From the sequence record DRR723986_13540: 29,281 nucleotides of DNA; one strand, written 5' to 3'. A program made the translations under genes and the position numbers. The notes below the pieces were generated by a model. It did not search any database. It was given only the letters and a program-made list of their open reading frames with translations, and was not told the DNA's origin. The stretch's first letter is position 1. Each line of letters opens with the position of its first letter. Shown here piece after piece: positions 1-12,225 of the stretch.

Positions 1-2
1 CC

Positions 3-194
3 GCAATTATGGTGGGCGTTAAAGATCACTCACCGCAATTTTTAAAATACTTAGACAGTATTACTCTGAATTTAGGATTAGAAATTGAAATAACGGATAA
101 AATTGAGTTTGATAACTCTATTCGCGTAAAACTAAAAGACTCAAACGAGCACCAACTTTCTCAACTAGTTGCCCAAAATATTATTGTAAAGTAA
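3..194 (+). CDS. C-terminal FeoA/SH3-like domain of a DtxR/MntR-family metal-dependent regulator (5'-truncated)
   Basis: Frame is open to the window edge; VGVKDHSPQFLKYLDS...GLEIEITDKIEFDNSI...LSQLVAQNIIV resembles Bacteroidota DtxR C-termini. Confidence 0.75.
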   Translation, partial: AIMVGVKDHSPQFLKYLDSITLNLGLEIEITDKIEFDNSIRVKLKDSNEHQLSQLVAQNIIVK

Positions 195-315
195 TTTCCT
201 TTATAGAATATTTAAATTTTCTTAGCAGCAATCTTTTAATCCAAGTTTCCTAGAATAAACTAGTACTTGGCATGTAATCTTATTTCCCTCTCTCGTTTCT
301 GAGTAGAATTTATTT

Positions 316-333
316 CACCCAAGATGCACCCAA
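316..333 (+). promoter_or_regulatory. Direct repeat CACCCAA x2 with 11-bp periodicity upstream of the HTH operon; possible protein-binding site
   Basis: cacccaa at 316-322 and 327-333. Confidence 0.35.
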
Positions 334-394
334 CTTGGCAAAAACTCAAATCAAACTGCCGCAATTTTGTCCAGAACATTAAAAACAAAATGAT

Positions 395-700
395 ATGGCA
401 ACAAACATTATTACCCCAGATGATTTAGAACAGTTCAAATGGGAACTACTTGCGGACATTAAAGAGTACCTGGATAAAAAAGTAGGAACAACGCCCGCAC
501 AAAAAGAAGAAGATTGGATCAAATCTCATCAGGTCCAAAGGTTACTTGGAATTTCTCCAGGCACATTACAAAACCTTAGAGTGAATGGCACTATCCCCTA
601 TTCAAAAGTTGGAGGAGTACTCTTCTATAAGAAGGCCGATATCCAGCACATCTTGGAACAAAATATGAGAAACAGTGATCAATCAATTAACAACCATTAA
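395..700 (+). CDS. HTH_17/excisionase-like DNA-binding protein
   Basis: WIKSHQVQRLLGISPGTLQNLRVNGTIPYSKVGGVLFY is the typical Bacteroidota mobile-element winged HTH. Confidence 0.9.
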   Translation: MATNIITPDDLEQFKWELLADIKEYLDKKVGTTPAQKEEDWIKSHQVQRLLGISPGTLQNLRVNGTIPYSKVGGVLFYKKADIQHILEQNMRNSDQSINNH

Positions 701-712
701 ATCAAAAATATT

Positions 713-967
713 ATGTCAAAACACTGCAGAATTAAACCCATTGAAACTCAAAACAATGTTATGAACATTAGAACAGAATGGATGAATGGATTAGAGGTAA
801 GCCACGCCTTAGGAATGAGCTACAAAACACTTTTACGTTTGCGCAAAAGTGGAGCTCTTCCATACAGTAAGGTCAATGGAAAAATCTATTTTAAAAGAGA
901 GGATATAGACAAATTGCTGGCTAACAGCTACCGCCAGTTTTACTGTCAATGTTGTAATAAAAAATAA
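713..967 (+). CDS. Second HTH_17/excisionase-like protein (start may be ATG 761); short Cys-rich tail CQCC
   Basis: WMNGLEVSHALGMSYKTLLRLRKSGALPYSKVNGKIYF. Confidence 0.85.
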   Translation: MSKHCRIKPIETQNNVMNIRTEWMNGLEVSHALGMSYKTLLRLRKSGALPYSKVNGKIYFKREDIDKLLANSYRQFYCQCCNKK

Positions 968-977
968 AGAATCTATT

Positions 978-1008
978 CCCCCTTTGGAGGGGGGGCGTTA
1001 GGGGGAGG
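978..1008. repeat. G/C-run hairpin (CCCCCT-ttgg-AGGGGG) followed by a second G-run; REP-like palindrome
   Basis: ccccctttggagggggggcgttagggggagg, between the HTH gene and the initiator gene. Confidence 0.5.
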
Positions 1009-1015
1009 ATATTCA

Positions 1016-1690
1016 GTGAAACAAACCGTAAATTACATAAAACACCTTGAATCATGGGCGGATAGAATCTGTTGTGATGACCGGCTAACGCCTCATCACA
1101 TCAGTCTGTACTATGCAATGTTTCACCAATGGAATTTAGCCAAATTCAAAAATCCGATATCCATTTGCAGGTCCGAGCTAATGCTCGCCTGCAAAATAGG
1201 GTCGGCCAACACTTATACAAAGTGTTTAAAACAGTTAGATATTTGGGGATATATTGAATACAAACCATCCTATAATCCAGCAAGAGGCAGCCTTGTGAAC
1301 CTGTACAATTTTGATCATAGTACTAGTAAAGGTAGTGATAAGGGTACTGATAAAGGTGCTGTAATAGCAGTGCGACCTTCATTAAACAGTATAAACAATA
1401 AAAACATTAAAACAGATAAAACAAGTAAGGTGAAAAACAAGTTTTCACCACCCTCCCTTGATGAAGTAAAAGAGTTTTTTCTTGATTTAAAAAGTACGGT
1501 AAGTGAAGCAGAAAATTTCCACAATTATTTTGAATCCAATGGCTGGTTAGTAGGTGGTAAAGCAAAAATGAAAAACTGGCAAGCTGCTGCACGAAATTGG
1601 ATTAAGAGATCCGGGAACTTCAATAAAAGCTCAACAGCGAAGGAAAGACTTCACACAAATGATGATAAAGAATATGCAACGCCTTTGTAA
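1016..1690 (+). CDS. Phage-type replication initiator / replisome-organiser-like protein
   Basis: N-terminal winged helix (HISLYYAMFHQWN...LDIWGYIEYKPS), repeat-containing linker, C-terminal FSPPSLDEV...FHNYFESNGW..G..KMKNWQAAARNW domain; directly upstream of a loader-like ATPase. Confidence 0.75.
   Translation: MKQTVNYIKHLESWADRICCDDRLTPHHISLYYAMFHQWNLAKFKNPISICRSELMLACKIGSANTYTKCLKQLDIWGYIEYKPSYNPARGSLVNLYNFDHSTSKGSDKGTDKGAVIAVRPSLNSINNKNIKTDKTSKVKNKFSPPSLDEVKEFFLDLKSTVSEAENFHNYFESNGWLVGGKAKMKNWQAAARNWIKRSGNFNKSSTAKERLHTNDDKEYATPL
1309..1440. other. Putative replication origin inside the initiator gene (12-bp iterons + A-rich tract)
   Basis: tactagtaaagg/tagtgataaggg/tactgataaagg/tgctgtaatagc at 1321-1368; A-rich stretch about 1381-1440. 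Confidence 0.55.
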
Positions 1691-1691
1691 A

Positions 1692-2339
1692 ATGAAAGAA
1701 ACCGTCAAGCCAAAAATAGAATGCCCGTATAGTATCGTGAATAATTATCGTCTCTATGATTTTAAAAAATCATGGGCTTATCTTGAATTTTTAGGTCGCG
1801 AAAAATTCGGCCCAAAATTCAAATTACAAAATGGTGATCGCGAAATCATTTACAAGTTATTCATCTACTTTATTGGTGATGAAGAAAATTGCAAACGGCA
1901 TGGACTGGAATTAGAAAAGGGCATTTTATTAAATGGTCCAGTTGGTTGTGGTAAAACATCATTAATGCATTTGATGAAAAAGTTTGCTCATCCAAATTTG
2001 TACGCGATTAAATCAACCAGAGAAATTGCTGCAGAATTCAATCAATTTGGTTATTCAGTAATTCTGAAATATGGTAAAACGCCAAAACGCATTTACTGCT
2101 TTGATGATTTAGGAGTAGAAAACAACATGAAGTATTTCGGTACAGAGTGCAACACCATTTCAGAAATACTCCTGCAGCGTTATGACTTAAATTTAATTGA
2201 TGGCACAGTAACTCACGCAACCACCAACCTCAACGCATCTGAATTAGAAGAGCTGTATGGCAACAGAGTAAGATCAAGAATGCGGGAACTCTTCAATCTC
2301 ATCTCATTCGATCGCTATGTAGGTGACAAGCGCCAATGA
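1692..2339 (+). CDS. P-loop ATPase, DnaC/IstB-like helicase-loader family (ATG 1692 preferred over 1659)
   Basis: Walker A GPVGCGKT, Walker B YCFDDLG, HATTNL, YGNRVRSRMRELFN. Confidence 0.85.
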   Translation: MKETVKPKIECPYSIVNNYRLYDFKKSWAYLEFLGREKFGPKFKLQNGDREIIYKLFIYFIGDEENCKRHGLELEKGILLNGPVGCGKTSLMHLMKKFAHPNLYAIKSTREIAAEFNQFGYSVILKYGKTPKRIYCFDDLGVENNMKYFGTECNTISEILLQRYDLNLIDGTVTHATTNLNASELEELYGNRVRSRMRELFNLISFDRYVGDKRQ

Positions 2340-2542
2340 GATTGAATAATCATGAGCGCATTTGAAGAATGGACAAAAGCGAATAGTTGTTCAATTTAAT
2401 TTCTTTTGATAGAAATGTAGATGATAAACGGAGGTAAATAAATGCCAAAATAATTAGCAAATATTTTCTTGAAATGTCTATCTTCCAAGCTTTCAGTAAC
2501 AAGTTGAATTGTTAACCCAAAACAGCTCTAAAGCTAAAGAAT

Positions 2543-3409
2543 ATGAAATTTGTTTCAACCTCAGCTCTCGCAAAGGAGAGAGATATTGATTCCAAAGAAT
2601 TATTTACGACCTTGAAAGAAAAAGGTTGGATTTACAAAAAAGATAATCAATGGCACTTGTCTAAAGAAGGAAGATTAGCCGGTGGTGATACTAAGTACAA
2701 TCCAAAATATGGTGAGTATGTTGTTTGGCCAATTGATTTAAATATTGAACAAAAAGTTGATTCACAATCCATGCTCAATGCTACTAAAATTGGTGAGCAT
2801 TTTAACATATCCAACAAAAAGGTAAATCTTTATTTATCGGATTTAGGATGGATAAGTAAAGAAAGGGGGGGGTGGGAACTTTCTAAAGCTGGAAAAAAGA
2901 ATGGAGGTCATCAAATGGAAGCTAAAAATGGCACTCCATATGCGCTTTGGGAAGAGTCGATCTTAAGCAATGTCCACTTCAAAAGAACAATTGATATCGG
3001 GGAAGGAAATTATGAAGAAGAAAAGGTTGAGACTAGCGAGAGTGAACAGTTTGATGATTTTCGAAAAAAATACCCTGCAGAAAAAAGAACTTCTGATGGC
3101 CATTATGTGAGAAGTAGAGCAGAACTTTTAATAGATAATTTCTTTTATAGAAACGGTATTGTTCACGCTTATGAAAAGAAGGTGAATATTGATGAGCCTA
3201 TGTATTGTGATTTTTATCTTCCTGAAAAGAAAATATATGTAGAATACTGGGGCTTAGAGGAAAATGCAGCATATGCAGAAAGAAAAAAAAGGAAACTTGA
3301 ATTGTATGCTAAATATGACATTAAATTGATAGAATTAAAAGATTCCGACCTTGAGAATCTGGATGAGATATTAGAAGCAAAACTTCGCAGATTAGGAATT
3401 ACAGTTTAG
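2543..3409 (+). CDS. Two antirepressor-like winged-helix repeats fused to a C-terminal PD-(D/E)xK-type nuclease domain
   Basis: Repeated STSALAK..L.EKGWI / NATKIGE..LSDLGWI units; RTSDGHYVRSRAELLIDNFF...YE...YCDFYLP...YVEYWG. Confidence 0.7.
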   Translation: MKFVSTSALAKERDIDSKELFTTLKEKGWIYKKDNQWHLSKEGRLAGGDTKYNPKYGEYVVWPIDLNIEQKVDSQSMLNATKIGEHFNISNKKVNLYLSDLGWISKERGGWELSKAGKKNGGHQMEAKNGTPYALWEESILSNVHFKRTIDIGEGNYEEEKVETSESEQFDDFRKKYPAEKRTSDGHYVRSRAELLIDNFFYRNGIVHAYEKKVNIDEPMYCDFYLPEKKIYVEYWGLEENAAYAERKKRKLELYAKYDIKLIELKDSDLENLDEILEAKLRRLGITV

Positions 3410-3414
3410 AATTT

Positions 3415-6216
3415 ATGAGTAGTTATAATAAATACCCAAGAGGATCAGAATGGAGAAGATGGGACTTACATATACATACTCCAGAAACTAATAAAAACGA
3501 TAATTTCGTAGGTAGCTCTCCTCAAGAAAAATGGGAGAAATATGTTACTGATATTAATTCCTACTCTGATGATATTGCGGTTGTAGGTATAACGGATTAT
3601 TTTTCAAGTAAAAATTACTTTCAATTCAAACAATTGATCGCTGAAGGTAAAATCACTAAAAAATTTAAGCTAGTATTACCAAATGTTGAGTTAAGAATTT
3701 CTCCTGTAACAGGTTCATCTACACCAATCAATATTCATTGTTTGTTTAATCCAAAAATAGACAATGAACTCAATGATAGATTTTTTGCTAAACTCAAATT
3801 CAATTATTCTGGCAGCGATTATTCCGCAACAGAAAGCGAGTTGATTAGGTTAGGAAAAACGTATGAGAATAACGATTCTCTCTCTGATTCTATTGCTTAT
3901 AGTAAAGGTGTAAATCAGTACGTAATTGAATTCGGATCTTTACAAGAATTATTTAACAAAGATTCAGACCTCAGAGAAAACACCATAATTGTAGTGTCGA
4001 ATAGTAGTTCAGATGGTGCTTCTGGGTTAAGTCATTCTGAATTGTTTGATGGAACGACTTCCCAACTAGATGCTACGAGAAGAAGTATATATCAACTAAC
4101 AGATGCAATATTTTCAGCAAGACCCAAAGATAGGTTGTATTTTATAGGTGAAGGTCCAGATACGATTGAAACTGTTATCAGAAAATGTGGTGGTTTGAAA
4201 CCGTGCTTTCATGGTTGTGATGCTCACTCAAATGATAGGATTTTTAATCCTGATGAAAATCGTTATTGCTGGATTAAATCAGACCCAACTTTTGAAGGTT
4301 TAAAGCAGGTTTTGTACGAGCCTGTAGATCGCGTATTTATTGGTGAAAATTATCCAGATGAAAAAGTGCTATATCAGGTTATAGATAGTGTGAAGTTCGA
4401 AGACTCGGAATTTCAAACCACTGAAATCGTTTTAAATTCGAATTTCACTGCAATAATTGGAGGTAAGTCAACAGGGAAGTCTCTGTTGCTAAAAAATATA
4501 GCAAAAACTATTGATCCAGTTGAATATAGTCGCAGAATTGAAGCAGCGAGCTTAATTGAAAAGAGAGATATTGATGGTATGGTTGTCAAATGGAAGGATG
4601 GCCAAATCAATAACCTTGGATCTGGCTCTGATGTTGAAAAAAGAATTATTTACATTCCACAATCCTATCTGAATCGAGTCGTAGATGTAGATAAAAGTAA
4701 TTCAGACATTGATAATATTATCAAGGATATTCTCTTACAAGATTCTCAATTTCAAGAATGGTATGATGCGTTGAAATTGACAGAAAGACAAATGGGCTTC
4801 AAAATCGACACATTGATATCTTCAATGTTTGAAGCTCTAAGTTCATTTTATACTTCTTCAAACGATTTGAAAAAAATTGGAGATGAGAAGGGCGTTAAAA
4901 GTCAAATTTCTAAAATCAATGGTGAAATAAAATTGATACAAGCAAAATTGAAGTTGACACCAGAAGAAATTAGTCTATTCGAAAAGAAAGTTGAATTGAT
5001 GTCAAAGATGAAACTTAAAATTGATAACTATTCGAAAGATATCAGTGTTCTTCAAGTTGCAGCGGACATAAGAATAAAGCTCTATGATCCATTAACACAT
5101 GAATTAAAAAATGAAGATTATAATCAGAAACTTCGGGATTTAGCAAAAGCCAAAGCTCAAGTTTTTTCTTTGGATTGGCAATCTGAAATTAAACAGCTAA
5201 TTGAACAGTATCAAAAAGAAATTGAGGAGGTTAAACAAAATTTGGTTAAAGAGGAGAAAGGAATTTTTGAGCTCAAACAGAAAATAGAAAGTCAAAAAAG
5301 TATTCAAGAGAAGTATAAAGCTCTAAAAGTTGAGAAAGAAAAAGAACAAAAACTTGAACAGTATAAAAAGGCCAAAGAAGAGCAGAAGAAAATTGTTAAG
5401 GATTGTGTGAACGAATTGATTGAATTGATAGGTAATTTTTACACGATTTATCTAGAAGCGAAGGACAAAATAAATAAGGATGGTTTTGATGATGAGCTCA
5501 AATTTGATATTGAAACCATTTTTTCGAGAAAACAATTTCAAGAAAATTTTGAAAGAGCTTTTTTTGATGGAAGGTCAATGAGAAGTGAAGAGTATGATTT
5601 TATCACAGAAATCAGTTTTGTAAATAAGGAAGATTTTAAAGAAAAAATAAAAAAAATCATATACGCTATTTTGAATGATAAACTTCCTGTTAAAGAAGGT
5701 TTCAGTAAAAAGGATATTATCTCGAGTCTAATAAAAAATTGGTTTTACCATAAATTTAAGGTCGAATACTACGGAGATCAGTTAAATGATATGTCCCCTG
5801 GTAAAAAATCATTTGTTTTGTTGAGGCTATTGATAGATTTGGATAATAGTAAGTGCCCTATTTTAATTGATCAACCGGAAGATGATCTTGATAATCGGTC
5901 CATTTATTATGAAGTTGTCAAATTTTTAAGAAGTAAAAAGAGTGAGCGCCAAATAATTATCGCTACACACAATCCTAATTTAGTTTTAGGTGCAGATTCA
6001 GAGCTAATTATAGTTGCTAATCAAGAGGGAAAAGATTCAAAGAACTTGAGTTCTAAGTTTGAATATATATCAGGAAGCATTGAGCATAGTTTTAGAGACG
6101 GTTCGGTGCCTGAAACTCTATATAAACAAGGAGTGCAAGAACATATATGTGATATCCTTGAAGGTGGAAGGGAAGCTTTTATCAAACGAAAAAACAAATA
6201 TCAGTTCAAAGGGTAG
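3415..6216 (+). CDS. Ppl/TrlF-like PHP phosphoesterase-SMC/ABC ATPase fusion, probable anti-phage protein
   Basis: PHP motifs GSEWRRWDLHIHTP, GITDY, NVEL, NIH, GCDAH, WIKSDPTFEGL; Walker A GGKSTGKS; coiled coil; signature MSPGKK; Walker B/D-loop LIDQPEDDLDN; H-loop ATHNPN. Confidence 0.88.
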   Translation: MSSYNKYPRGSEWRRWDLHIHTPETNKNDNFVGSSPQEKWEKYVTDINSYSDDIAVVGITDYFSSKNYFQFKQLIAEGKITKKFKLVLPNVELRISPVTGSSTPINIHCLFNPKIDNELNDRFFAKLKFNYSGSDYSATESELIRLGKTYENNDSLSDSIAYSKGVNQYVIEFGSLQELFNKDSDLRENTIIVVSNSSSDGASGLSHSELFDGTTSQLDATRRSIYQLTDAIFSARPKDRLYFIGEGPDTIETVIRKCGGLKPCFHGCDAHSNDRIFNPDENRYCWIKSDPTFEGLKQVLYEPVDRVFIGENYPDEKVLYQVIDSVKFEDSEFQTTEIVLNSNFTAIIGGKSTGKSLLLKNIAKTIDPVEYSRRIEAASLIEKRDIDGMVVKWKDGQINNLGSGSDVEKRIIYIPQSYLNRVVDVDKSNSDIDNIIKDILLQDSQFQEWYDALKLTERQMGFKIDTLISSMFEALSSFYTSSNDLKKIGDEKGVKSQISKINGEIKLIQAKLKLTPEEISLFEKKVELMSKMKLKIDNYSKDISVLQVAADIRIKLYDPLTHELKNEDYNQKLRDLAKAKAQVFSLDWQSEIKQLIEQYQKEIEEVKQNLVKEEKGIFELKQKIESQKSIQEKYKALKVEKEKEQKLEQYKKAKEEQKKIVKDCVNELIELIGNFYTIYLEAKDKINKDGFDDELKFDIETIFSRKQFQENFERAFFDGRSMRSEEYDFITEISFVNKEDFKEKIKKIIYAILNDKLPVKEGFSKKDIISSLIKNWFYHKFKVEYYGDQLNDMSPGKKSFVLLRLLIDLDNSKCPILIDQPEDDLDNRSIYYEVVKFLRSKKSERQIIIATHNPNLVLGADSELIIVANQEGKDSKNLSSKFEYISGSIEHSFRDGSVPETLYKQGVQEHICDILEGGREAFIKRKNKYQFKG

Positions 6217-6240
6217 GATTAGATTCAAATTATAAAAGAC

Positions 6241-6840
6241 AGGTTATAAGGTGTTCGTCAATCACTGCATTTTGTTTCGCAAACCATAATCAAAAGGGTG
6301 TATAAACTCATTTCATTCGCCCTTGTGCTTAATGCTTTGCTTCACACATTCCGTTCAATCCTCACCCGGTGCTGTACTGCTCCCGAAATAGTATTTGTAA
6401 GGTTTTGAGAAAACAAAACCCACAAAAACATATTCGGGATCACCGCACCTTAATATTTGTGCTCGCCTGCGGGTCGCTGCGGGCTATTCGGGCTGCTGCG
6501 CCATGCTGGCTTGCCTGAAAAGTCACAGTTTTAGAATCCAATTTGTCAGTAAGCTGCGCAAGATTTGCTTAGCACACTTCTCAAACCCACACAAGTATAG
6601 CTCCTTCAATCACCTTCATTTCTTTGCGGCTCATTCAGTTGCAAAACTTGTCTTTCCCCAGCTGCGTCAAAAACTCCGCCAGCCCTGCCCCGAAGGTTCG
6701 GGGTTGGTGCCACAACATTCATTCTTCATGTTACTCATGTCACCACCCTTGCTCCACTCGCAGGGCGCCTACGCTAAAGCTTCAGCGCCAGCGTACGGCT
6801 CGCGCACACAGGCCAACCCTCGCTCAAGGCTGTATAACCT
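6241..6840. ncRNA. Candidate large structured non-coding RNA or ssDNA element (600 bp)
   Basis: About 49% GC by hand count in AT-rich surroundings; ends aggttata/tataacct are complementary; at least 7 internal stems; no credible ORF. Confidence 0.5.
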
Positions 6841-6871
6841 TTGGACAATAAATTGAATTGAAGTACTTTTG
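6840..6871 (+). promoter_or_regulatory. Bacteroidota housekeeping promoter TTTG-N20-TAnnTTTG for merTP
   Basis: tttg 6840-6843, tacttttg 6864-6871, ATG at 6877. Confidence 0.6.
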
Positions 6872-6876
6872 TAGTA

Positions 6877-7464
6877 ATGGCGAACAAGGAAAATAAAGGG
6901 TTATTGGGCTTAGGCATCTTAACTGCTGTTGCTTCTTCTTTGTGTTGTATTACACCTGTTTTAGCAATGTTGGCTGGGTCAAGTGGAATGGCATCTAGCT
7001 TTTCTTGGATTGAACCAGCCCGACCATATTTGATTGCATCCACATTTCTGGTGCTTGGGTTGGCTTGGTGGCTAAAACTAAGGCCAGTTAAAACAGATGA
7101 CTGTGGATGTGAAGTACCGCAGAAATCTTCTTTCTTTCAATCTAAGAAGTTTTTATTGATAGTTACAATACTTGCGCTTGTAATGACAGCTTTTCCTTAC
7201 TATTCACATATATTCTATTCTTCTAATCAAACTGTTGAGGTAGCTGATGAGAATTTGGAACGAACGACCATTATGATTGAGGGCATGACTTGTGATGCTT
7301 GTCAAAAACATGTTGATCATGCCATTTTAGAATTAAAAGGAATTAGTTCAGTTGAAACATCATACGAACTTGGGCAAACTACTGTAAAGTTTGATAAGTC
7401 TCAAACGACACATAAGGATATAGTAGCAGCAATTAATAGTACAGGTTACAATGCAGTCGAGTAA
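6877..7464 (+). CDS. merTP: Mercuric transport protein MerT-MerP(HMA) fusion
   Basis: ASSLCCITP in TM1, WIEPARPY, DCGC loop, C-terminal HMA GMTCDAC. Confidence 0.9.
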   Translation: MANKENKGLLGLGILTAVASSLCCITPVLAMLAGSSGMASSFSWIEPARPYLIASTFLVLGLAWWLKLRPVKTDDCGCEVPQKSSFFQSKKFLLIVTILALVMTAFPYYSHIFYSSNQTVEVADENLERTTIMIEGMTCDACQKHVDHAILELKGISSVETSYELGQTTVKFDKSQTTHKDIVAAINSTGYNAVE

Positions 7465-7684
7465 AGAAACCATATTAGAATCAAAGATCACTTGTCCTGA
7501 ATGTGGTTATTCAAAAGTTGAGACCATGCCTACAGATGCGTGTTCTTGGTTTTATGAATGTGAAAATTGTCACAAGGTACTCAAGCCTCTTGAAGGTGAT
7601 TGTTGTGTTTACTGTAGTTATGGAACAGTTCCTTGTCCTCCAATTCAAGAGTCAGGTTCATGTTCGTCTTCTTGTTGCTCTTAA
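7451..7684 (+). CDS. GDCCVxC domain-containing Cys-rich protein
   Basis: ITCPECG...MPTDAC..FYECENC...LKPLEGDCCVYCSYGTVPCPPIQ; overlaps the merTP stop. Confidence 0.9.
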   Translation: MQSSKETILESKITCPECGYSKVETMPTDACSWFYECENCHKVLKPLEGDCCVYCSYGTVPCPPIQESGSCSSSCCS

Positions 7685-7731
7685 TATCAGCCAGTGCAAT
7701 TCCGCACTTTGTTAATTATAGTTTTCATAGC

Positions 7732-7835
7732 AGGTTTTATGGATGTCGTGCGTCCTCTTCCAGGAGGATCATCAAAAAAGTAAAAGGATAACCCACCAGC
7801 TCCACGCAGTCCATAATCCTTTCACTTTTTAGATG
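7732..7835. other. Second structured non-coding element with crossing stems
   Basis: ttatgga(7737-7743)/tccataa(7810-7816); tcctc/gagga hairpin 7753-7768; catc-aaaaagt-aaaggat(7770-7789)/atccttt-acttttt-gatg(7816-7835). Confidence 0.4.
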
Positions 7836-7851
7836 TTGTTGTACAGAACGC

Positions 7852-7888
7852 AAAAAAGGGATACCAACTTGATATCCCTTTCATTTTT
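7852..7888. terminator. Intrinsic terminator between convergent operons, probably bidirectional
   Basis: aaagggata(7855-7863)/tatcccttt(7873-7881) flanked by A- and T-rich tracts. Confidence 0.7.
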
Positions 7889-7907
7889 GAATGAGTCTAC
7901 ACCCACT

Positions 7908-8123
7908 TTAATGCTCTTTTGAGCGGTTAAACAATTTGTTTTTAAGCTTCTTCCAAGCCCATTTACACAGTTGAGTAATTACAAAACTGGCAATTGCTCC
8001 AACAGCTCCCAGTACAATTGTCCTAGTGATATCTGTTGTTTCCAAATTGGGAAGAATTGCCAGTAGTGTTCCACCGATTGTTCCAGCAACTGTATCATTT
8101 TCTATGTGATGCAATCCTGCCAT
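7908..8123 (-). CDS. Small membrane protein (holin-like or coat-protein-like)
   Basis: 71 aa; hydrophobic segments GTIGGTLLAIL and IVLGAVGAIASFVITQL; strongly basic C-terminus. Confidence 0.7.
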   Translation of the reverse strand: MAGLHHIENDTVAGTIGGTLLAILPNLETTDITRTIVLGAVGAIASFVITQLCKWAWKKLKNKLFNRSKEH

Positions 8124-8132
8124 ACAATTAGA

Positions 8133-8384
8133 TTACTCTTCACAATCAGCATCATCTGCCATTGCCGCTTGACTCATTGCTGTAGCCACAGTTCCGCCTA
8201 CAATTAAGTATCCACCAATGGTAGAAACTAATGCGGGCAGTGCAATTGGTGCAGCAACAATAGTTGTTCCTGCAGCTGCTACAACTAAGCCAATGATGCG
8301 CAACTTCTTAAAGAATGGCGGAGTTTCAACTCCACATCTCTTGAAGTAAGATTTCAATTTGTCTTTAAATCGTTCTTTCTTCAT
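8133..8384 (-). CDS. Small two-TM membrane protein (holin-like)
   Basis: Basic N-terminus, ETPPFFKKLRIIGL, Ala/Gly-rich hydrophobic hairpin; 8-9 bp from its neighbours. Confidence 0.7.
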   Translation of the reverse strand: MKKERFKDKLKSYFKRCGVETPPFFKKLRIIGLVVAAAGTTIVAAPIALPALVSTIGGYLIVGGTVATAMSQAAMADDADCEE

Positions 8385-8392
8385 ACTTAAGA

Positions 8393-9142
8393 TTATTGTA
8401 CATCAACAATAGCTAACGCATTGAATGCTCCATTTTTGAGTGTGTATTGATCACCATTCACTTCTTGGTAAAATTCAACCATCAATAGGTATAAATCTGT
8501 TCCAGATCCTGCAGGTGTTCCAGCTGGAGTCAATAGAACGTTCGTTGAGGTCGCATCAATCGGAAGATTGACAGCATTACTCTCTTGAAGGTCGTAATCA
8601 CCAGTTGCAAAATCAACTTTCACCCAACCACCTCTCAAAGTGATGTGAGTTGCTCCTGGTGCATTGTTTAAATCATTGACCGGAATCAAGTTATTTAAAG
8701 TGATTACACCAGTACCCAAATCGACTATGTAAGGATTGAATAAAATAGAACCCAAAATCGCTTTGTCATTCATATTGAAGTTTTTCAAAAGTGCCTTTGC
8801 TGACGCACCGGCAATTGCAACTCCAACATTTCTTTCTCCTCTAACACTTGTTGTGTCCAAATTTTTAATTTGAGACATCAACTTTGTCATTCTAGAAGTC
8901 ACACGATTATCAGAAGCATTCTGCATCATGGTACGAATTGCATCTCTAAGTAATTTCCCAGATTTGGCAGAACCACCAAATTCAGAACCGTTTTCTCTCG
9001 TTCTCACGAAAGCGGGATCTTTTTTGATACGCTCTCCATCAACTCCGCCTTTTTCACGGGCTAAGTATCCGTCCTTACTTTTGTAGAAGGATAAATCTCC
9101 GATTTTCCCTTCCAATTTGATTATGCCTTTCTGTCTTGCCAT
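8393..9142 (-). CDS. Bacteroidota mobile-element protein of unknown function (starts MARQKGIIKLEGKIG), 249 aa
   Basis: ATG at 9142 preferred over 9187; basic N-terminal half, beta-rich C-terminal half (FYQEVNGDQYTLKNG). Confidence 0.8.
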   Translation of the reverse strand: MARQKGIIKLEGKIGDLSFYKSKDGYLAREKGGVDGERIKKDPAFVRTRENGSEFGGSAKSGKLLRDAIRTMMQNASDNRVTSRMTKLMSQIKNLDTTSVRGERNVGVAIAGASAKALLKNFNMNDKAILGSILFNPYIVDLGTGVITLNNLIPVNDLNNAPGATHITLRGGWVKVDFATGDYDLQESNAVNLPIDATSTNVLLTPAGTPAGSGTDLYLLMVEFYQEVNGDQYTLKNGAFNALAIVDVQ

Positions 9143-9396
9143 AATATTTGTTGTTGTTAGTTTTAGGTCCTTCACCTGGTTGACCATTTCACCAGTTTAT
9201 GTGCCATAGCTTGCTCGAGTTAATTAATTGCAAAGGCACACGCGCAAAGCAAATATTCACAAATGGCAACAGGAGTCAAAATCTTGGCTTCCGCTTCATA
9301 AACTATCTGCCGTTTTGTGTTAAAATGACCTATTGAAAAGGGTAGATGAAGTATTAATTTTGTATTGAACGAGTATAGAAAGTGTATAGATAAAGT

Positions 9397-9585
9397 ATGA
9401 AGAGAGTTGTGATATATCCAAAAGACATTATGATCATCACCGGTAAGAGTGAAAGATACTCTCGTTACCTCATCCAACGCATCAAGAAGCATTTAAAGAA
9501 AGAACATTACCAAGTTGTTTCCATTTCAGAGTTCTGCGCTTATATGGGCTTAGATGAAGCATCAATATCAGCTTGTATTCTTTGA
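9397..9585 (+). CDS. Small HTH-like DNA-binding protein divergent from the three-gene module
   Basis: IYPKDIMIITGKSERYSRYLIQRIK...VSISEFCAYMGL. Confidence 0.75.
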   Translation: MKRVVIYPKDIMIITGKSERYSRYLIQRIKKHLKKEHYQVVSISEFCAYMGLDEASISACIL

Positions 9586-9744
9586 TGCAATTTGTTGCTA
9601 AATGATATATGAATCAGTATCTTTAGTGTCATACGTTCTTTAAATCACAACAACTAAAAACAAGATTTCTGCAAGCAAATTAGCAAGCAGTATTTTCAAA
9701 TTAAGATAACAACCTCATTAAGAGCATAATATAATTGGCGCGGT

Positions 9745-9763
9745 AATCCTGCCGAGGTCACCA
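9745..9763 (+). other. Attachment site (attR): isolated copy of a tRNA 3' end, likely tRNA-Arg(ACG)
   Basis: aatcctgccgaggtcacca = part of T-loop, T-stem 3' strand, acceptor strand, CCA; upstream sequence cannot form the rest of a tRNA. Isotype assigned from recalled Bacteroidota tRNA-Arg ends. Confidence 0.8.
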
Positions 9764-9770
9764 AGAAAGC

Positions 9771-9806
9771 AAAACTCCTTCAGAGAATCTGAGGGAGTTT
9801 TTGTTT
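9771..9806 (+). terminator. Intrinsic terminator, probably the original tRNA terminator
   Basis: aaactccttcaga-gaa-tctgagggagttt followed by a T-tract. Confidence 0.85.
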
Positions 9807-9856
9807 GTTCAAAGACGTAATGAATTTATTTAATTGAGAATTTGAACAAACAAAAA
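9798..9856. repeat. Perfect 16-bp inverted repeat with 27-bp spacer
   Basis: tttttgtttgttcaaa (9798-9813) / tttgaacaaacaaaaa (9841-9856). Confidence 0.7.
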
Positions 9857-9894
9857 CCAAAATTGAAAATTTTGAGTTTTGCTTTCGGAATTCG

Positions 9895-9979
9895 GAGCTC
9901 AAAGGAACTTAAATCCTCGAAACGGATTTCCCTCAGCTACGCACCAATATTGCCAAAAACTGTATTTAACATGATTAAA
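9895..9979 (+). repeat. Intergenic repeat family A, copy 1
   Basis: gagctcaaaggaactt-aaatcctcgaaacggatttccctcagctacgcaccaatattg... matches 12303-12400. Confidence 0.85.
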
Positions 9980-10456
9980 ATTCTCGTTCCAATTGTATTA
10001 CTACTGAGCCTGAACATCTGCGCACAAGCTCCAGTTAATGTCTGGAAACATAAACCTGCAGTGGGATCCGTTTATACTTTTCAAGGATTTCAATACTGTG
10101 CTGGATACAGAGCTATACAAAATATCAATCTGAAATCTGAAGGCTATGGTTTCAGCCATTCAATAACTGCACTGGTACATTATACGCATAGCCGTAAGCT
10201 CATTGGACTCAGTGTTGAGTATGGTCACGCAATTGAGGGAATGGTCGGTGGACGGATGAAACTAGACTATCATGGCAACTCCCAAGGGACTCGTTTCAGT
10301 TGTACTCCTGCTATTAGCATTGGATACTTAGAAAGAATTCATTTTTCATTTGGGTATCGCCTTTATTTTCATGATCACTGGGCTCCGAATCCAGAAAAGC
10401 CAGTTTGGGGGCTACCTGAAGTAGCTGTAGCTTTCGTCATCCCTCCGAATAAATAG
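9971..10456 (+). CDS. Hypothetical exported protein, possibly a small outer-membrane beta-barrel (start ATG 9971)
   Basis: Signal peptide MIKILVPIVLLLSLNICAQ; amphipathic beta-strand pattern; the upstream ORF extension runs through repeat DNA. Confidence 0.6.
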   Translation: MIKILVPIVLLLSLNICAQAPVNVWKHKPAVGSVYTFQGFQYCAGYRAIQNINLKSEGYGFSHSITALVHYTHSRKLIGLSVEYGHAIEGMVGGRMKLDYHGNSQGTRFSCTPAISIGYLERIHFSFGYRLYFHDHWAPNPEKPVWGLPEVAVAFVIPPNK

Positions 10457-10458
10457 CA

Positions 10459-10472
10459 CAGCTACTGCGGAG
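10459..10472 (+). repeat. REP-like family B, half copy
   Basis: cagctactgcggag immediately after the stop codon. Confidence 0.6.
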
Positions 10473-10672
10473 AAAATTTGATGAATTTTGCTCAAGGAAT
10501 TCAAATGATCATGAACAGATTCAACATTTGCGAATTGCACAAATTATTATCTTTTGTTGTGAATTTCAATTCTCAATATGCGCCTGGCAACTATAATTTT
10601 GTTTTAAACAATAAAAGTAGATCATAGGGCTAAGACTTTTATAGCTTTGTTCTGCTTTTGAAAACTGAACAA

Positions 10673-11695
10673 ATGAAATCGCCCCAAACGGTAAAAACAG
10701 AACAAGAGAAGACTTGGATGGAAATTGTGAAAGATTACAATAAATCTGACGCAAAAAAAAGCTGGTGGCAAGTTGCCAATTCATTTATCCCCTATTTTGG
10801 ACTTTGGGTATTGATGTATTACTCCTTGGCATGGTCATATTGGATCACTTTAGGCCTTTCTATTATAGCAGCTGGTTTTTTGCTTAGAATTTTCATCATT
10901 TTTCATGACTGCGGTCATGGATCATTTTTCAAATCTCAAAAATTAGCCAGAGTTGTTGGTATTATTGCTGCCGGATTTATTTTTACTCCTTATCATAAAT
11001 GGCATATGGATCATAAAATCCATCACAGCACCATGGGGAATTTAGATAATAAAGGAGTTGGAGATGTACGAACATTCACCATTGAAGAATACCGACAATT
11101 TACTCCGATTCAAAAATTGTTGTATCGAATTTACAGACATCCAATTACTCTTTTTATTGTAGGCCCTCTCCTACTCTTTTTAGTGATCTTCAGATGGCCA
11201 CCTGCCTCAAGGAGTTTGAAAGAAAAAGTTTACACACATATTACAAGTGTTGTTTTGGCGCTGGCCGTTTATCTCATGCACTTATGGATAGGCATCATAC
11301 CTTTTATTATGATTCAGCTGCCAATTCTATTTGTGGCGGCAGGTCATGGAGCCTGGTTATTTTATGTGCAACATCAATATGAAGATGTACAATGGAGAAG
11401 ACAAAAAGATTGGGACTATAAGGAAATGGCCTTTGAGGGAAGTTCTTATTTGAAACTTCCGAGAATTTTACAATGGTTTACGGGTAATGTTGGATTTCAC
11501 CAAATTCATCACCTTAGCCCGAGAATGCCTAATTATAATCTTGAAAAGTGTTATAATGAAAACGAATCTATGCAAGCGGACACACCAATTACATGGCTAA
11601 AAGCCCTGAAATGCATTAAATACAGACTATGGGATGAAGAGCGTAGTCGACTGGTTAGCTTTAGAGATTTAAAACGAGAAGGTATCCCGTATTAA
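10673..11695 (+). CDS. des: Membrane fatty acid desaturase, Bacillus Des-like (ATG 10673 or TTG 10658)
   Basis: His boxes HDCGH, HKIHH, HQIHH; WLFYVQHQYE; GSSYLKLP..LQWFTGNVGFH. Confidence 0.92.
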   Translation: MKSPQTVKTEQEKTWMEIVKDYNKSDAKKSWWQVANSFIPYFGLWVLMYYSLAWSYWITLGLSIIAAGFLLRIFIIFHDCGHGSFFKSQKLARVVGIIAAGFIFTPYHKWHMDHKIHHSTMGNLDNKGVGDVRTFTIEEYRQFTPIQKLLYRIYRHPITLFIVGPLLLFLVIFRWPPASRSLKEKVYTHITSVVLALAVYLMHLWIGIIPFIMIQLPILFVAAGHGAWLFYVQHQYEDVQWRRQKDWDYKEMAFEGSSYLKLPRILQWFTGNVGFHQIHHLSPRMPNYNLEKCYNENESMQADTPITWLKALKCIKYRLWDEERSRLVSFRDLKREGIPY

Positions 11696-11699
11696 AATT
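11616..11699 (+). repeat. 84-bp direct repeat, copy 1 (functional 3' end of des)
   Basis: 78/84 identical to 14688-14771 by hand alignment. Confidence 0.95.
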
Positions 11700-11776
11700 T
11701 AAAGCAGATTAGCTACTTCTGAGTAGAGCTCAAAGGAACAACAGAGTTTATCCATAGTACTCTTACAAAGCTTTTA

Positions 11777-11806
11777 CCGCAGCAGCTCAGCTACTGCGGA
11801 GCAAGG
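11777..11806. repeat. REP-like palindrome family B
   Basis: ccgcagcagct-c-agctactgcgg-agcaagg. Confidence 0.75.
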
Positions 11807-11877
11807 ATTAGTCAAGCTTTGGTAAAGAATATCTTGATTTTAAGCAAAGTTCTATGTTATGCTTAGTTTTTCAAAGC

Positions 11878-12225
11878 TCATTTTCCAAACACCTCTTCCT
11901 TCTCTTTTTCGCTTAGATACGATCGTCTGTTTTTCGTTACATCATACAAACTTGATAATTCAGGATGATCTTTTATTCGGGAAGAAATACAGCTATATAA
12001 TTTATCAATCTGATCTTGACTAACATATCTATTCCAAATCAATCTTTCAGCATATTTTTTTATCAATTCGATATCGTCCGAGTTCTCCACTTTTAAAAAT
12101 TTGTTCCAGTCTGTGATGATATTTTCTCTAGCCTTCTTCCTATTTCTCCAGAAAATCACTTGAGTGATAATCAAAAACGGAAAGAAAATAATCAATAAAA
12201 ACTTTAAGATTTGAGCAAATTCCAT
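11878..12225 (-). CDS. Hypothetical protein with N-terminal TM anchor
   Basis: 115 aa; hydrophobic N-terminus followed by basic WRNRKK. Confidence 0.65.
   Translation of the reverse strand: MEFAQILKFLLIIFFPFLIITQVIFWRNRKKARENIITDWNKFLKVENSDDIELIKKYAERLIWNRYVSQDQIDKLYSCISSRIKDHPELSSLYDVTKNRRSYLSEKEKEEVFGK

Follow-up and report, generated by a model that had tools for sequence, protein, structure and literature searches.

The stretch of DNA analysed here, 29,281 nt from sequence record DRR723986_13540, is referred to in the following as the window. Judged by comparison with related loci, its positions 316-9761 are the right part of a genetic element that is integrated in the tRNA-Arg(ACG) gene of a marine Bacteroidota bacterium. 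The best-supported description of this element is an RteC-controlled, self-replicating integrative island with a hotspot for defence and metal cargo, which belongs to a very large, undescribed family of Bacteroidota elements. The following genes and features were assigned from left to right:

3-194, plus strand: C-terminus of a truncated gene with a FeoA-type domain, 63 aa in the window (Pfam FeoA, E 3.5e-8)
316-394, plus strand: conserved leader of the xis operon with the inverted repeat CCAAG-N9-CTTGG, nearly invariant in the window and in the related loci L015-L018
395-700, plus strand: Xis-like HTH_17 protein A, 101 aa (Pfam HTH_17, E 1.5e-10; PHROG 66 "excisionase and transcriptional regulator", E 1e-7)
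713-967, plus strand: Xis-like HTH_17 protein B, 84 aa (Pfam HTH_17, E 1.5e-10; likewise matched by PHROG "excisionase"; TIGR01764, E 6e-4, below its cut-off)
1016-1690, plus strand: initiator-like (replisome-organiser-like) protein, 224 aa (weak PHROG matches; winged helix, disordered linker, C-terminal helical domain)
1327-1424, plus strand: candidate origin within the initiator gene, a 12-nt repeat unit followed by an A-rich repeat found with Tandem Repeats Finder (TRF), to which an origin function is tentatively ascribed
1659-2339, plus strand: loader-like AAA+ ATPase, open reading frame (ORF) of 226 aa, consensus start of the relatives at 1692 (PHROG 50 "DnaC-like helicase loader", E 3e-12)
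2543-3409, plus strand: 288-aa candidate defence protein PDC-S69, whose C-terminus resembles PD-(D/E)xK (PADLOC, E 2.4e-105, full length)
3415-6216, plus strand: TrlF-family, Ppl-like ATPase, 933 aa (NCBIfam NF045780, 584 bits, cut-off 350; PADLOC Ppl, E 2e-19)
6239-6860, no strand assigned: GC-rich conserved non-coding block (GC 0.43 against about 0.30-0.36 nearby) with complementary ends and extensive predicted secondary structure
6877-7464, plus strand: MerTP mercuric ion transport protein (NCBIfam NF033556, 257 bits, cut-off 180; Pfam MerT and HMA)
7451-7684, plus strand: GDCCVxC-domain metal-binding protein (NCBIfam NF041374, 105.7 bits, cut-off 40)
7908-8123, minus strand: p71, with two hydrophobic segments and a basic C-terminus, in 17/80 loci and always after p83
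8133-8384, minus strand: p83, with a basic N-terminus and two glycine/alanine-rich hydrophobic segments, in 24/80 loci
8393-9142, minus strand: p249; in the AlphaFold2 (AF2) model a small sheet at the N-terminus is followed by a helical part and, at the C-terminus, by an Ig-like sandwich
9397-9585, plus strand: small protein of 62 aa resembling a helix-turn-helix (HTH) protein, in 16/80 loci and beside p249 in other elements
9745-9761, plus strand: attR core (identity to the 3' end of tRNA-Arg(ACG); homology to L017 and L018 stops at 9761)
9763-9809, plus strand: hairpin of the native tRNA terminator, located beyond attR in the chromosome (inverted repeat; same context downstream of the intact tRNA gene in genome G003)

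A first-pass annotation, made from the letters alone, had described the region as a replicative, tRNA-integrated element with two xis-like genes, an initiator with iterons, a loader-like ATPase, defence cargo, a structured block, metal cargo, a convergent three-gene module, a small HTH gene and attR in this order. Every item of this series was found at or near its proposed place, but the iterons turned out to be weak. HTH_17 domains identify both xis-like genes, the defence cargo corresponds to PDC-S69 and the TrlF-family ATPase, and the metal cargo corresponds to MerTP together with the GDCCVxC protein. The structured block is the non-coding GC-rich segment, which is conserved in relatives, and the three minus-strand genes (7908-9187) are present together with the small HTH gene.

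The right boundary of the element is given by the 17 nt at 9745-9761, which are identical to the 3' end of tRNA-Arg(ACG), whereas ARAGORN called no tRNA gene anywhere within the window. From position 9947 onward, thus on the chromosomal side, the window is matched at 98-99% by the related genome G001, whose contig C86 starts exactly there, so that the G001 assembly breaks beside the att site. Within window positions 1-9765, G001 matches only 6239-6803 (92%) and 7700-9191 (95%), both on other contigs; the left arm of the element has no match in this genome, and the right arm is 92-95% identical. A 16-nt core was present in 8 of 31 related genomes, and wherever a tRNA gene was called it represented the 3' end of tRNA-Arg(ACG). 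G003 contains one copy of the core in a similar terminator context, which by this comparison is an empty site. On the left, homology to the relatives has a sharp boundary at about position 316, which lies in a nearly invariant 80-nt leader in front of the first xis-like gene. This leader is a probable promoter/operator. The sequence to the left of it is different in every relative, and since the FeoA ORF (3-194) is located there, it is probably left-hand cargo, possibly a metal regulator, of an element that runs off the left end of the window.

In order to see what a complete element looks like, relatives with a longer left part are informative. Both ends are visible only in G007, the genome of locus L017, where four copies of the core are located on one contig. 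One of them is at tRNA-Arg(ACG), and next to it come the genes for an integrase of 422 aa (Arm-DNA-bind_5, SAM_5, Phage_integrase) and RteC; the right-end core is located 33 kb from the tRNA core, with two further copies just beyond. After RteC there are about 22 kb of Cu/Ag/Hg efflux and oxidase genes, then the two xis genes, the initiator and the loader, and downstream of the loader a PLD protein, the GC-rich block, the three-gene module, the small HTH gene and attR, which adds up to an entire element of 33 kb. Thus, the attL that the first-pass annotation had called for, a full tRNA with the same 3' end next to an integrase, exists in this relative. A short contig of G001 (L109) likewise carries tRNA-Arg(ACG), integrase, RteC and a copper oxidase. 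In L015, whose initiator is 94% identical to that of the window, the order is tRNA-Gln, integrase, RteC, ArsR, MerTP, GDCCVxC protein, two xis genes, initiator and loader, followed by a type IIG restriction-modification (RM) enzyme, a UvrD helicase, the GC-rich block and the right-end module. An integrase resembling IntDOT adjoins the tRNA in L015, L108 (G007), L109 (G001) and L027, where the integrase ORF has 273 aa only, and RteC was detected by Pfam in the same four loci with E-values from 1e-47 to 1e-57. A search for direct repeats of the tRNA end (k=14) in 13 relatives with an upstream tRNA gave none except for two adjacent tRNA-Lys genes of L076. As a side observation, the DNA in front of the xis-like gene of L019 (2009-8790) codes for a helicase of the DEAD/ResIII type and two reverse transcriptases (RVT_1), and a second, XerC-like integrase is located downstream of the right end. 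The RVT_1 genes are possibly cargo of the left cargo site, of the retron type or of the type of defence-associated reverse transcriptases (DRT).

The size of the family was estimated by a pattern search of species-representative genomes, in which 544 of 600 listed stretches encode a relative, corresponding to at least 544 loci. Counts out of 80 refer to the best 80 of these at least 544 related genome loci, which were analysed together with 10-kb flanks by hidden Markov models (HMMs) built from the loci; the flank length limits the counts for the genes at the ends. The initiator-like protein alone has 4039 relatives at E<=1e-3 among 4187 candidates, and the few named ones, from Crocinitomicaceae, Fluviicola and Brumimicrobium, are labelled "transcriptional regulator" or "hypothetical". 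The best 80 loci span Flavobacteriales, Cytophagales, Chitinophagales, Bacteroidales and others. Among them the loader was found in 78, a xis-like gene in 77, RteC in 59, an integrase within 10 kb in 43, p83 in 24, p249 (in its 264-aa form, p264) in 23, p71 in 17 and the 62-aa HTH gene in 16. The order is constant, with (tRNA), int, rteC, xis, initiator and loader, a variable region, p71/p83/p264 on the opposite strand, and the HTH gene. A plus-strand tRNA gene (Gln, Lys, Arg, Asp, Leu, Ser and others) is located upstream in 13 of 30 loci scanned. In L047 and L061 the right end of one element abuts the integrase of the next, and L017 has three tandem att cores; such tandem arrays would fit repeated site-specific integration. 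G153 contains up to three copies of the element, and close relatives with 80-90% identical arms carry entirely different cargo. In an even phylum sample of 201 Bacteroidota genomes, the initiator (E<=1e-10) was found in 17, p249 in 14 and TraJ in 7. No published description of this gene set was found in the full-text literature (bioRxiv supplements and subscription journals being outside this scope); the family is very large and apparently undescribed.

The initiator-like gene is followed directly by the loader-like gene in 78 of the 80 loci. The initiator shows weak matches to PHROG 8102 (E 5e-4) and PHROG 3992 (E 1.8e-3), annotated as replication initiation protein and primosomal protein. 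In its AF2 model, residues 1-100 form a winged helix and residues 103-139 a disordered linker, and the domain at the C-terminus is small and helical. Structural matches of the winged helix include ORC/Cdc6, primosomal DnaB (5wtn, Z 7.8), RepA_N (4pta, Z 7.5) and the N-domain of DnaD (2vn2, Z 6.7). For the loader, the only specific matches are to the "DnaC-like" PHROG families, since besides PHROG 50 also PHROG 3277 was matched (E 1e-6), whereas no Pfam family was found. Its alignment shows the motifs DDLG, TTN and RxRSRLxE, which we take to look like those of the DnaC/IstB clade. Modelled complexes of the initiator C-terminal domain (135-224) with the loader had a median score of 0.46, with one control at 0.32, values that speak neither for nor against an interaction. 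The loader-like ATPase of the first-pass annotation thus stood as an AAA+ protein, but DnaC/DnaI-type NCBIfam models remained far under their cut-offs. Likewise, an initiator-like gene is present as proposed, but not a convincing set of iterons. Within the DNA that encodes the linker, TRF detected a 12-nt unit present in 2.9 copies (1327-1361, score 49) and, further on, an A-rich repeat (1384-1424). Relatives have 12-nt-periodic repeats with lineage-specific units at the same place. Lambda O is known to bind repeats inside its own gene, and by analogy the linker-coding repeats resemble such an origin inside the initiator gene. In the gap between the second xis-like gene and the initiator, a G/C-rich hairpin (974-1010, plus strand) matched Whalefall-1 RNA of Rfam below the threshold (22.4 bits, gathering score 37, E 0.043); it may be a terminator or attenuator, or kin of this orphan motif.

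Evidence for the function of this gene pair comes from virus contigs. A scan of IMG/VR with the initiator listed 585 pattern matches, of which 557 encode a relative (at least 557), and the best 80 loci were kept. Two of these are full-length, and the other 78 match only the C-terminal domain of the initiator or are otherwise outside the family. In 17 phage-contig proteins scanned, the C-terminal domain is fused to DUF6291 in four, to DUF1376 in two (plus one weak match) and to HTH_36 in two cases. The next gene or genes encode DnaB, lambda P or an IstB-like protein in 7 of 12 phage loci according to Pfam (DnaB in L138, L150, L157 and L184; lambda P and DnaB in L140; an IstB/DnaC-like AAA+ protein in L129 and L159), and one further case (L154) was recognised by the loader HMM. 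Phage replisome organisers are built in this way, with a variable head that binds the origin and a conserved tail, the gene that follows encoding a loader or helicase. This comparison supports the view that initiator and loader are a phage-type replication module, as the first-pass annotation had suspected.

Directly after the loader follows a site at which the gene content of the relatives varies. For this site, up to three ORFs of at least 100 aa within 6 kb after the loader were compared with PADLOC at E<=1e-10 in 44 of 58 eligible loci, whereby three near-duplicates and one locus were dropped by hand and the others were cut off by a limit on the number of residues. A PADLOC match was found in 28 of the 44 loci, or in 24 after setting aside four doubtful ones (a Csa3-like HTH protein, two partial subtilases and a PrimPol). 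The matches comprise type I, II and IIG RM systems, AbiE (6 loci), Shedu, Lamassu LmuA, CARF effectors, SIR2-HerA (2), CBASS cyclases (2), Dnd/Pbe, SoFic (3), AbiL, TmtA and PDC candidates. In the window, L015-L018 and G007, metal-resistance operons are located either at this post-loader site or in the interval from RteC to xis. By its varying content the post-loader site is a cargo hotspot, and the 24 loci with recognised defence proteins bear out the proposed defence hotspot beside the replication genes.

The right end of the element carries p249, p83 and p71 on the minus strand and the small HTH gene on the plus strand. The window ORF for p249 comprises 264 aa (8393-9187), but the relatives start at residue 16, which gives 249 aa and the coordinates 8393-9142. 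At E<=0.001, p249 has relatives in 2924 representative clusters. Its AF2 model (pLDDT 93.4, pTM 0.85) had no convincing counterpart in the PDB by Foldseek (best E 7.9e-3), full-length structural alignment with VIA-align yielded at best Z 6.0 and for the C-terminal Ig-like sandwich only, and the sequence profile found nothing in the PDB at E<=1. In BFVD one uncharacterised virus protein was matched (E 1e-4, TM 0.46), and Atlas matches were unnamed Bacteroidota clusters only, with DUF6266 as a lead at 0.75. The kinship to DUF6266 was rejected since hhalign against a DUF6266 protein of G205 gave a probability of 0.2, and for the early idea of a jelly-roll capsid protein no support was found. From its model, p249 is a candidate for a new protein fold. 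The 62-aa HTH protein falls into Atlas clusters with 344, 201 and 132 Bacteroidota members, for which there are HTH leads only. A 90-aa ORF on the minus strand (9220-9492) overlaps this conserved gene and therefore is probably not real.

In the sampled genomes p249 was found 17-59 kb from the initiator in the expected mirror orientation in seven cases, and in G078 it is located 1 kb from a truncated initiator; six further strong matches have no initiator nearby. One of these six belongs to the element of G070 (L191), which has the order tRNA-Asn, HTH gene, p249, copper efflux, Piwi protein, DUF3987/BT4734-like protein, HTH_17 and integrase. Since this element combines the p249/HTH end with a DUF3987/BT4734-like protein in place of initiator and loader, the module is common to elements with different replication genes. 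The Piwi-domain (prokaryotic Argonaute-like) protein is encoded at 17599-19653 of L191 (G070:C1) among the copper-efflux cargo. In L195 (G205:C1, 17147-19994) a p249 homologue has a DUF6266 protein at its side, and next come a weak match to DUF5675 (E 7.5e-5, under its cut-off) and p83; the homologue adjoins polysaccharide genes and is without the island core.

The GC-rich block is 75-92% identical in G001 and L015-L018 and has the complementary ends ACAGGTTATA ... TATAACCTGT. Single-base indels between close relatives speak against a coding function. With a profile search, about 17 more loci were found to contain part of the block, in each case in front of the p71 gene and with unchanged orientation. 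Two motifs, which are predicted to pair, are invariant in 12 aligned sequences. Covariation is modest, with 2 of 24 predicted pairs covarying among the 12 sequences; for the plus strand of six sequences, RNAalifold found 7 of 117 pairs to be compensatory and many G-U pairs. Single-sequence folding gave a z-score of -3.97 for the minus strand (0/20 shuffles as good) and -2.14 for the plus strand (1/20), and a cmscan of window positions 1-12000 against Rfam 15 (E<=1) yielded no match in the block. The 25-nt invariant motif (<=2 mismatches) occurs in only one of the 201 sampled genomes, namely G001, while 13 other sampled genomes hold p249. Therefore, the block is confined to a single branch of the family, and the idea that it is a universal core part was rejected. 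Within this branch it is a candidate for a new structured non-coding element, as far as folding predictions go.

The search for genes that could move the element was negative. Scans with Pfam, PHROG and NCBIfam found no conjugation or phage structural family in the window, and Pfam detected no relaxase, MobC-like protein, type IV secretion system (T4SS), terminase or capsid family between tRNA or integrase and right end in L015, L017 plus L108 (G007) and L027. This agrees with the first-pass annotation, which had seen neither conjugation nor tailed-phage genes. An upstream tra/mob or full prophage module, or a missing attL, would have spoken against its reading; neither was encountered in the relatives. 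Genome-wide, five carrier genomes (G007, G043, G153, G177 and G217; 98-100% complete) were searched for TraJ, the VirB4-like TraG (TIGR03783) and Relaxase PF03432, the latter being the sole relaxase family searched at this level. All three were absent from all five genomes, whereas all three were matched in the control, Bacteroides thetaiotaomicron. Of seven sampled genomes with a full-length initiator, one (G125) contains TraJ, on another contig.

Several known systems share parts of this build. CTnDOT, with its integrase IntDOT, the regulator RteC and the excision proteins Xis2c/Xis2d, resembles the family in the relatives' Arm-DNA-bind_5/SAM_5 integrase, RteC and subsequent operon-like block of HTH_17 Xis-like genes. 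In CTnDOT, orf3 and exc are the last genes of the excision operon, whereas initiator-like and AAA+ loader-like genes are located at this position in the present family. Furthermore, the family integrates in tRNA 3' ends, and no tra operon (type MPF_B), relaxase or coupling protein was found in it. NBU1 and NBU2 are small elements of Bacteroides at tRNA 3' ends which encode an integrase, small accessory proteins and a replication or primase-like gene. The relative in G070 with its DUF3987/BT4734-like protein recalls them, but no Mob relaxase or oriT was recognised here, and replication is assigned to a phage organiser plus loader, not to a primase-like protein. With lambdoid O/P modules (or DnaD/DnaI) the gene pair shares an initiator whose N-terminal DNA-binding domain varies while its C-terminal domain is conserved, a loader or helicase gene directly behind it, as well as short repeats and an A/T-rich tract in linker-coding DNA; it differs in that no membership by sequence in the lambda O, DnaD or DnaC families could be demonstrated and in having only 2.9 repeat copies. 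Heavy-metal cargo, a further likeness to CTnDOT-type integrative and conjugative elements (ICEs), is also described for RteC-bearing Mucilaginibacter elements (PMC6316836). Virion-encapsidated integrative mobile elements (VEIMEs) and other satellites resemble the family in that they encode an integrase and a regulator of the AlpA/HTH_17 type, bring a replication module of their own, carry defence cargo and live in marine hosts including Flavobacteria, and VEIMEs likewise are without capsid genes (PMC9618062). The present family differs by the lack of recognised packaging and interference genes, a very variable size and RteC-type control. The 10K island of Riemerella anatipestifer is another Flavobacteriales island that adjoins tRNA-Arg, has an IntN1-like integrase and forms circular excised molecules detected by PCR (PMC6764341). 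It has a 53-bp repeat compared to the 17-nt core found here, and its 12 ORFs include Fic and AntA/AntB-type proteins, with no initiator/loader pair named (PMC6764341). Since this gene list does not match, the 10K island was rejected as a member and probably represents a different family.

How islands with resistance and defence genes but no visible mobility spread is a long-standing question that can be put to the test with this family. With at least 544 loci it is very common among Bacteroidota; it occurs mostly in genomes without a conjugation system and is built in a modular way from CTnDOT-like integration and control, a phage-like replicon, an exchange hotspot for defence and metal genes, and a conserved right-end module. 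The initiator and loader can serve as a marker set for defence hotspots in marine and environmental Bacteroidota, and the family is a system for asking whether RteC-type control has been reused for non-conjugative spread.

The xis, initiator and loader genes form one conserved co-oriented block behind the conserved leader. We lean, with somewhat better than even confidence, to the interpretation that the integrative island excises and then replicates as a circle but does not itself encode a transfer apparatus; it would then be what the hitcher-element review calls a "hitcher". RteC activates the excision operon of CTnDOT. In the island, RteC would in the same way switch on the xis-initiator-loader operon, following the CTnDOT model as given in PMC6316836. 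The HTH_17 proteins would then turn the integrase toward excision, the initiator would bind the short repeats within its own gene in the manner of lambda O, and the AAA+ loader would put the host DnaB helicase on the circle, leading to theta-type copying. The right-end module (p249, p83, p71 and the 62-aa HTH protein, in a subset together with the block) might serve transfer or establishment, which is a guess. Because the carriers are mostly without a Bacteroidota conjugation system, we lean to an infecting phage or to vesicles as the vehicle over a resident conjugative element.

A number of points weigh against this interpretation. Excision and replication as a circle are deduced from gene content and comparison, and attL, integrase and RteC are known from relatives, the left part of the window's own element lying outside the sequence seen. 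The 20 sequencing runs listed, all of them in contig form and none an RNA run, contain at most 19% of the sequence words. In L015 and L027 no tRNA-end repeat of at least 10 nt was found within the DNA fetched. The initiator matched no Pfam or NCBIfam family and no PDB sequence at E<=1, its relatives carry the NCBI label "transcriptional regulator", and the structural matches of its winged helix to MarR, CRP and Fur regulators are just as good, so that the fold does not discriminate between initiators and regulators. The 2.9 repeat copies also encode a repeated peptide and could be a feature at the protein level. Against PRK06835, PRK08116 and DnaI of NCBIfam the loader scored 16-28 bits with cut-offs of 189-228, and its PDB profile matches cover the Walker A region of Rix7, Cdc48 and midasin and not DnaC/DnaI. 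Homologues of the N-domain of the initiator, about 100 aa in length, were found 3.6-5.4 kb from CtnDOT_TraJ in four genomes (E 1e-17 to 1e-25; G053:C3:265683, G082:C12:211366, G225:C5:141728 and G189:C1:240636). Thus, this domain has kin on conjugative elements, which suggests common ancestry of a DNA-binding protein of the tra region and the head of the island initiator. Finally, TraJ is rare overall (7/201), and therefore its absence from the carriers is weak evidence and suggestive only.

The alternative that we take most seriously, although we consider it unlikely, is an integrative mobilizable element, which after RteC-driven excision would use the mating apparatus and relaxase of a CTnDOT-type helper via an oriT that mimics that of the helper and is possibly located in the GC-rich block or at the right end. 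The CTnDOT-like backbone of the relatives speaks for it, as do the N-domain homologues close to traJ in the four genomes and the BT4734-like/DUF3987 protein that replaces initiator and loader in G070, a protein type that occurs on NBU-type elements. Also, the RteC-bearing Mucilaginibacter heavy-metal islands are described as CTnDOT-like ICEs (PMC6316836). It would, however, require a resident helper at the time of transfer, and such a helper is mostly missing: TraJ, VirB4 and PF03432 occur in none of the five carriers, TraJ in one of the seven sampled genomes with a full-length initiator, and neither the window nor the three annotated relatives encode a relaxase or MobC-like family. Next in our ranking, and likewise unlikely, is a phage satellite in the broad sense, resembling phage-inducible chromosomal islands (PICIs), phage-inducible chromosomal minimalist islands (PICMIs) or VEIMEs, in which excision and replication would be set off by an infecting or induced helper phage, whose capsids would take up the circle or its concatemers. 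The first-pass annotation had named this class as a possibility on account of the layout, and the phage-type replication module, the adjoining defence hotspot and the lack of both conjugation genes in the element and a T4SS in the carriers are in line with it. To our knowledge, RteC-type control has never been linked to phage induction, which counts against a satellite. In Pfam and PHROG scans of the window no packaging, capsid, interference, terS, capsid-size, scaffold or helper-sensing repressor gene was recognised. The distance of 17-59 kb from initiator to p249 is unlike size-constrained satellites, the right-end module occurs in 0/80 and the loader in 4/80 of the best IMG/VR loci, and the two full-length IMG/VR members carry RM and other island genes but no phage genes in the 13-21 kb fetched. 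Moreover, the backbone of IntDOT-like integrase, RteC and HTH_17 proteins is of the CTnDOT type and not that of a known satellite; a satellite or virus-like life is not supported by these findings. That marine virion-encapsidated integrative elements without capsid genes exist, some of them in Flavobacteria, is nevertheless a point in favour of a satellite (PMC9618062).

Two further explanations are of much lower probability. It is rather improbable that the island is a capsid-less, self-sufficient agent, whose right-end module of p249, two small membrane proteins, the small HTH protein and, in one branch, a structured RNA of about 600 nt would, after excision and replication triggered by RteC, move the circle via vesicles or another route with neither T4SS nor helper phage; if true, Bacteroidota would harbour a novel type of minimal mobile element that is virus-like or carried by vesicles. 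Least probable of all, and in our view very improbable, is that the island no longer moves and is what remains, in decay, of some larger conjugative element or prophage, with "replication" genes that are regulators. The NCBI label of the initiator family would fit such a remnant, and so would the truncated initiator of G078, the short integrase ORF of L027 and the position of the integrase end of the window's own copy outside the sequence seen. On the other hand, the core genes are intact and syntenic in 77-80 of the 80 loci and in many families, there are up to three copies per genome as well as tandem arrays at one att site, and cargo is entirely different between close relatives with 80-90% identical arms. 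Also, between window and G001 the arms of the element diverge more (92-95%) than the flanking chromosome (98-99%).

On the chromosomal side of attR, window positions 9842-11695 encode a 204-aa ORF without family assignment and a fatty-acid desaturase (Pfam, E 1.2e-32). The region from 9744 to 9906 matches the sequence downstream of tRNA-Arg(TCT) in G001 (contig C184, L004) at 76%. There, at 1326-1700 and 3' of the tRNA gene, the last approximately 20 nt of the tRNA are repeated twice more, each time with a terminator-like hairpin. These repeats resemble traces that former integrations have left at another tRNA-Arg site.

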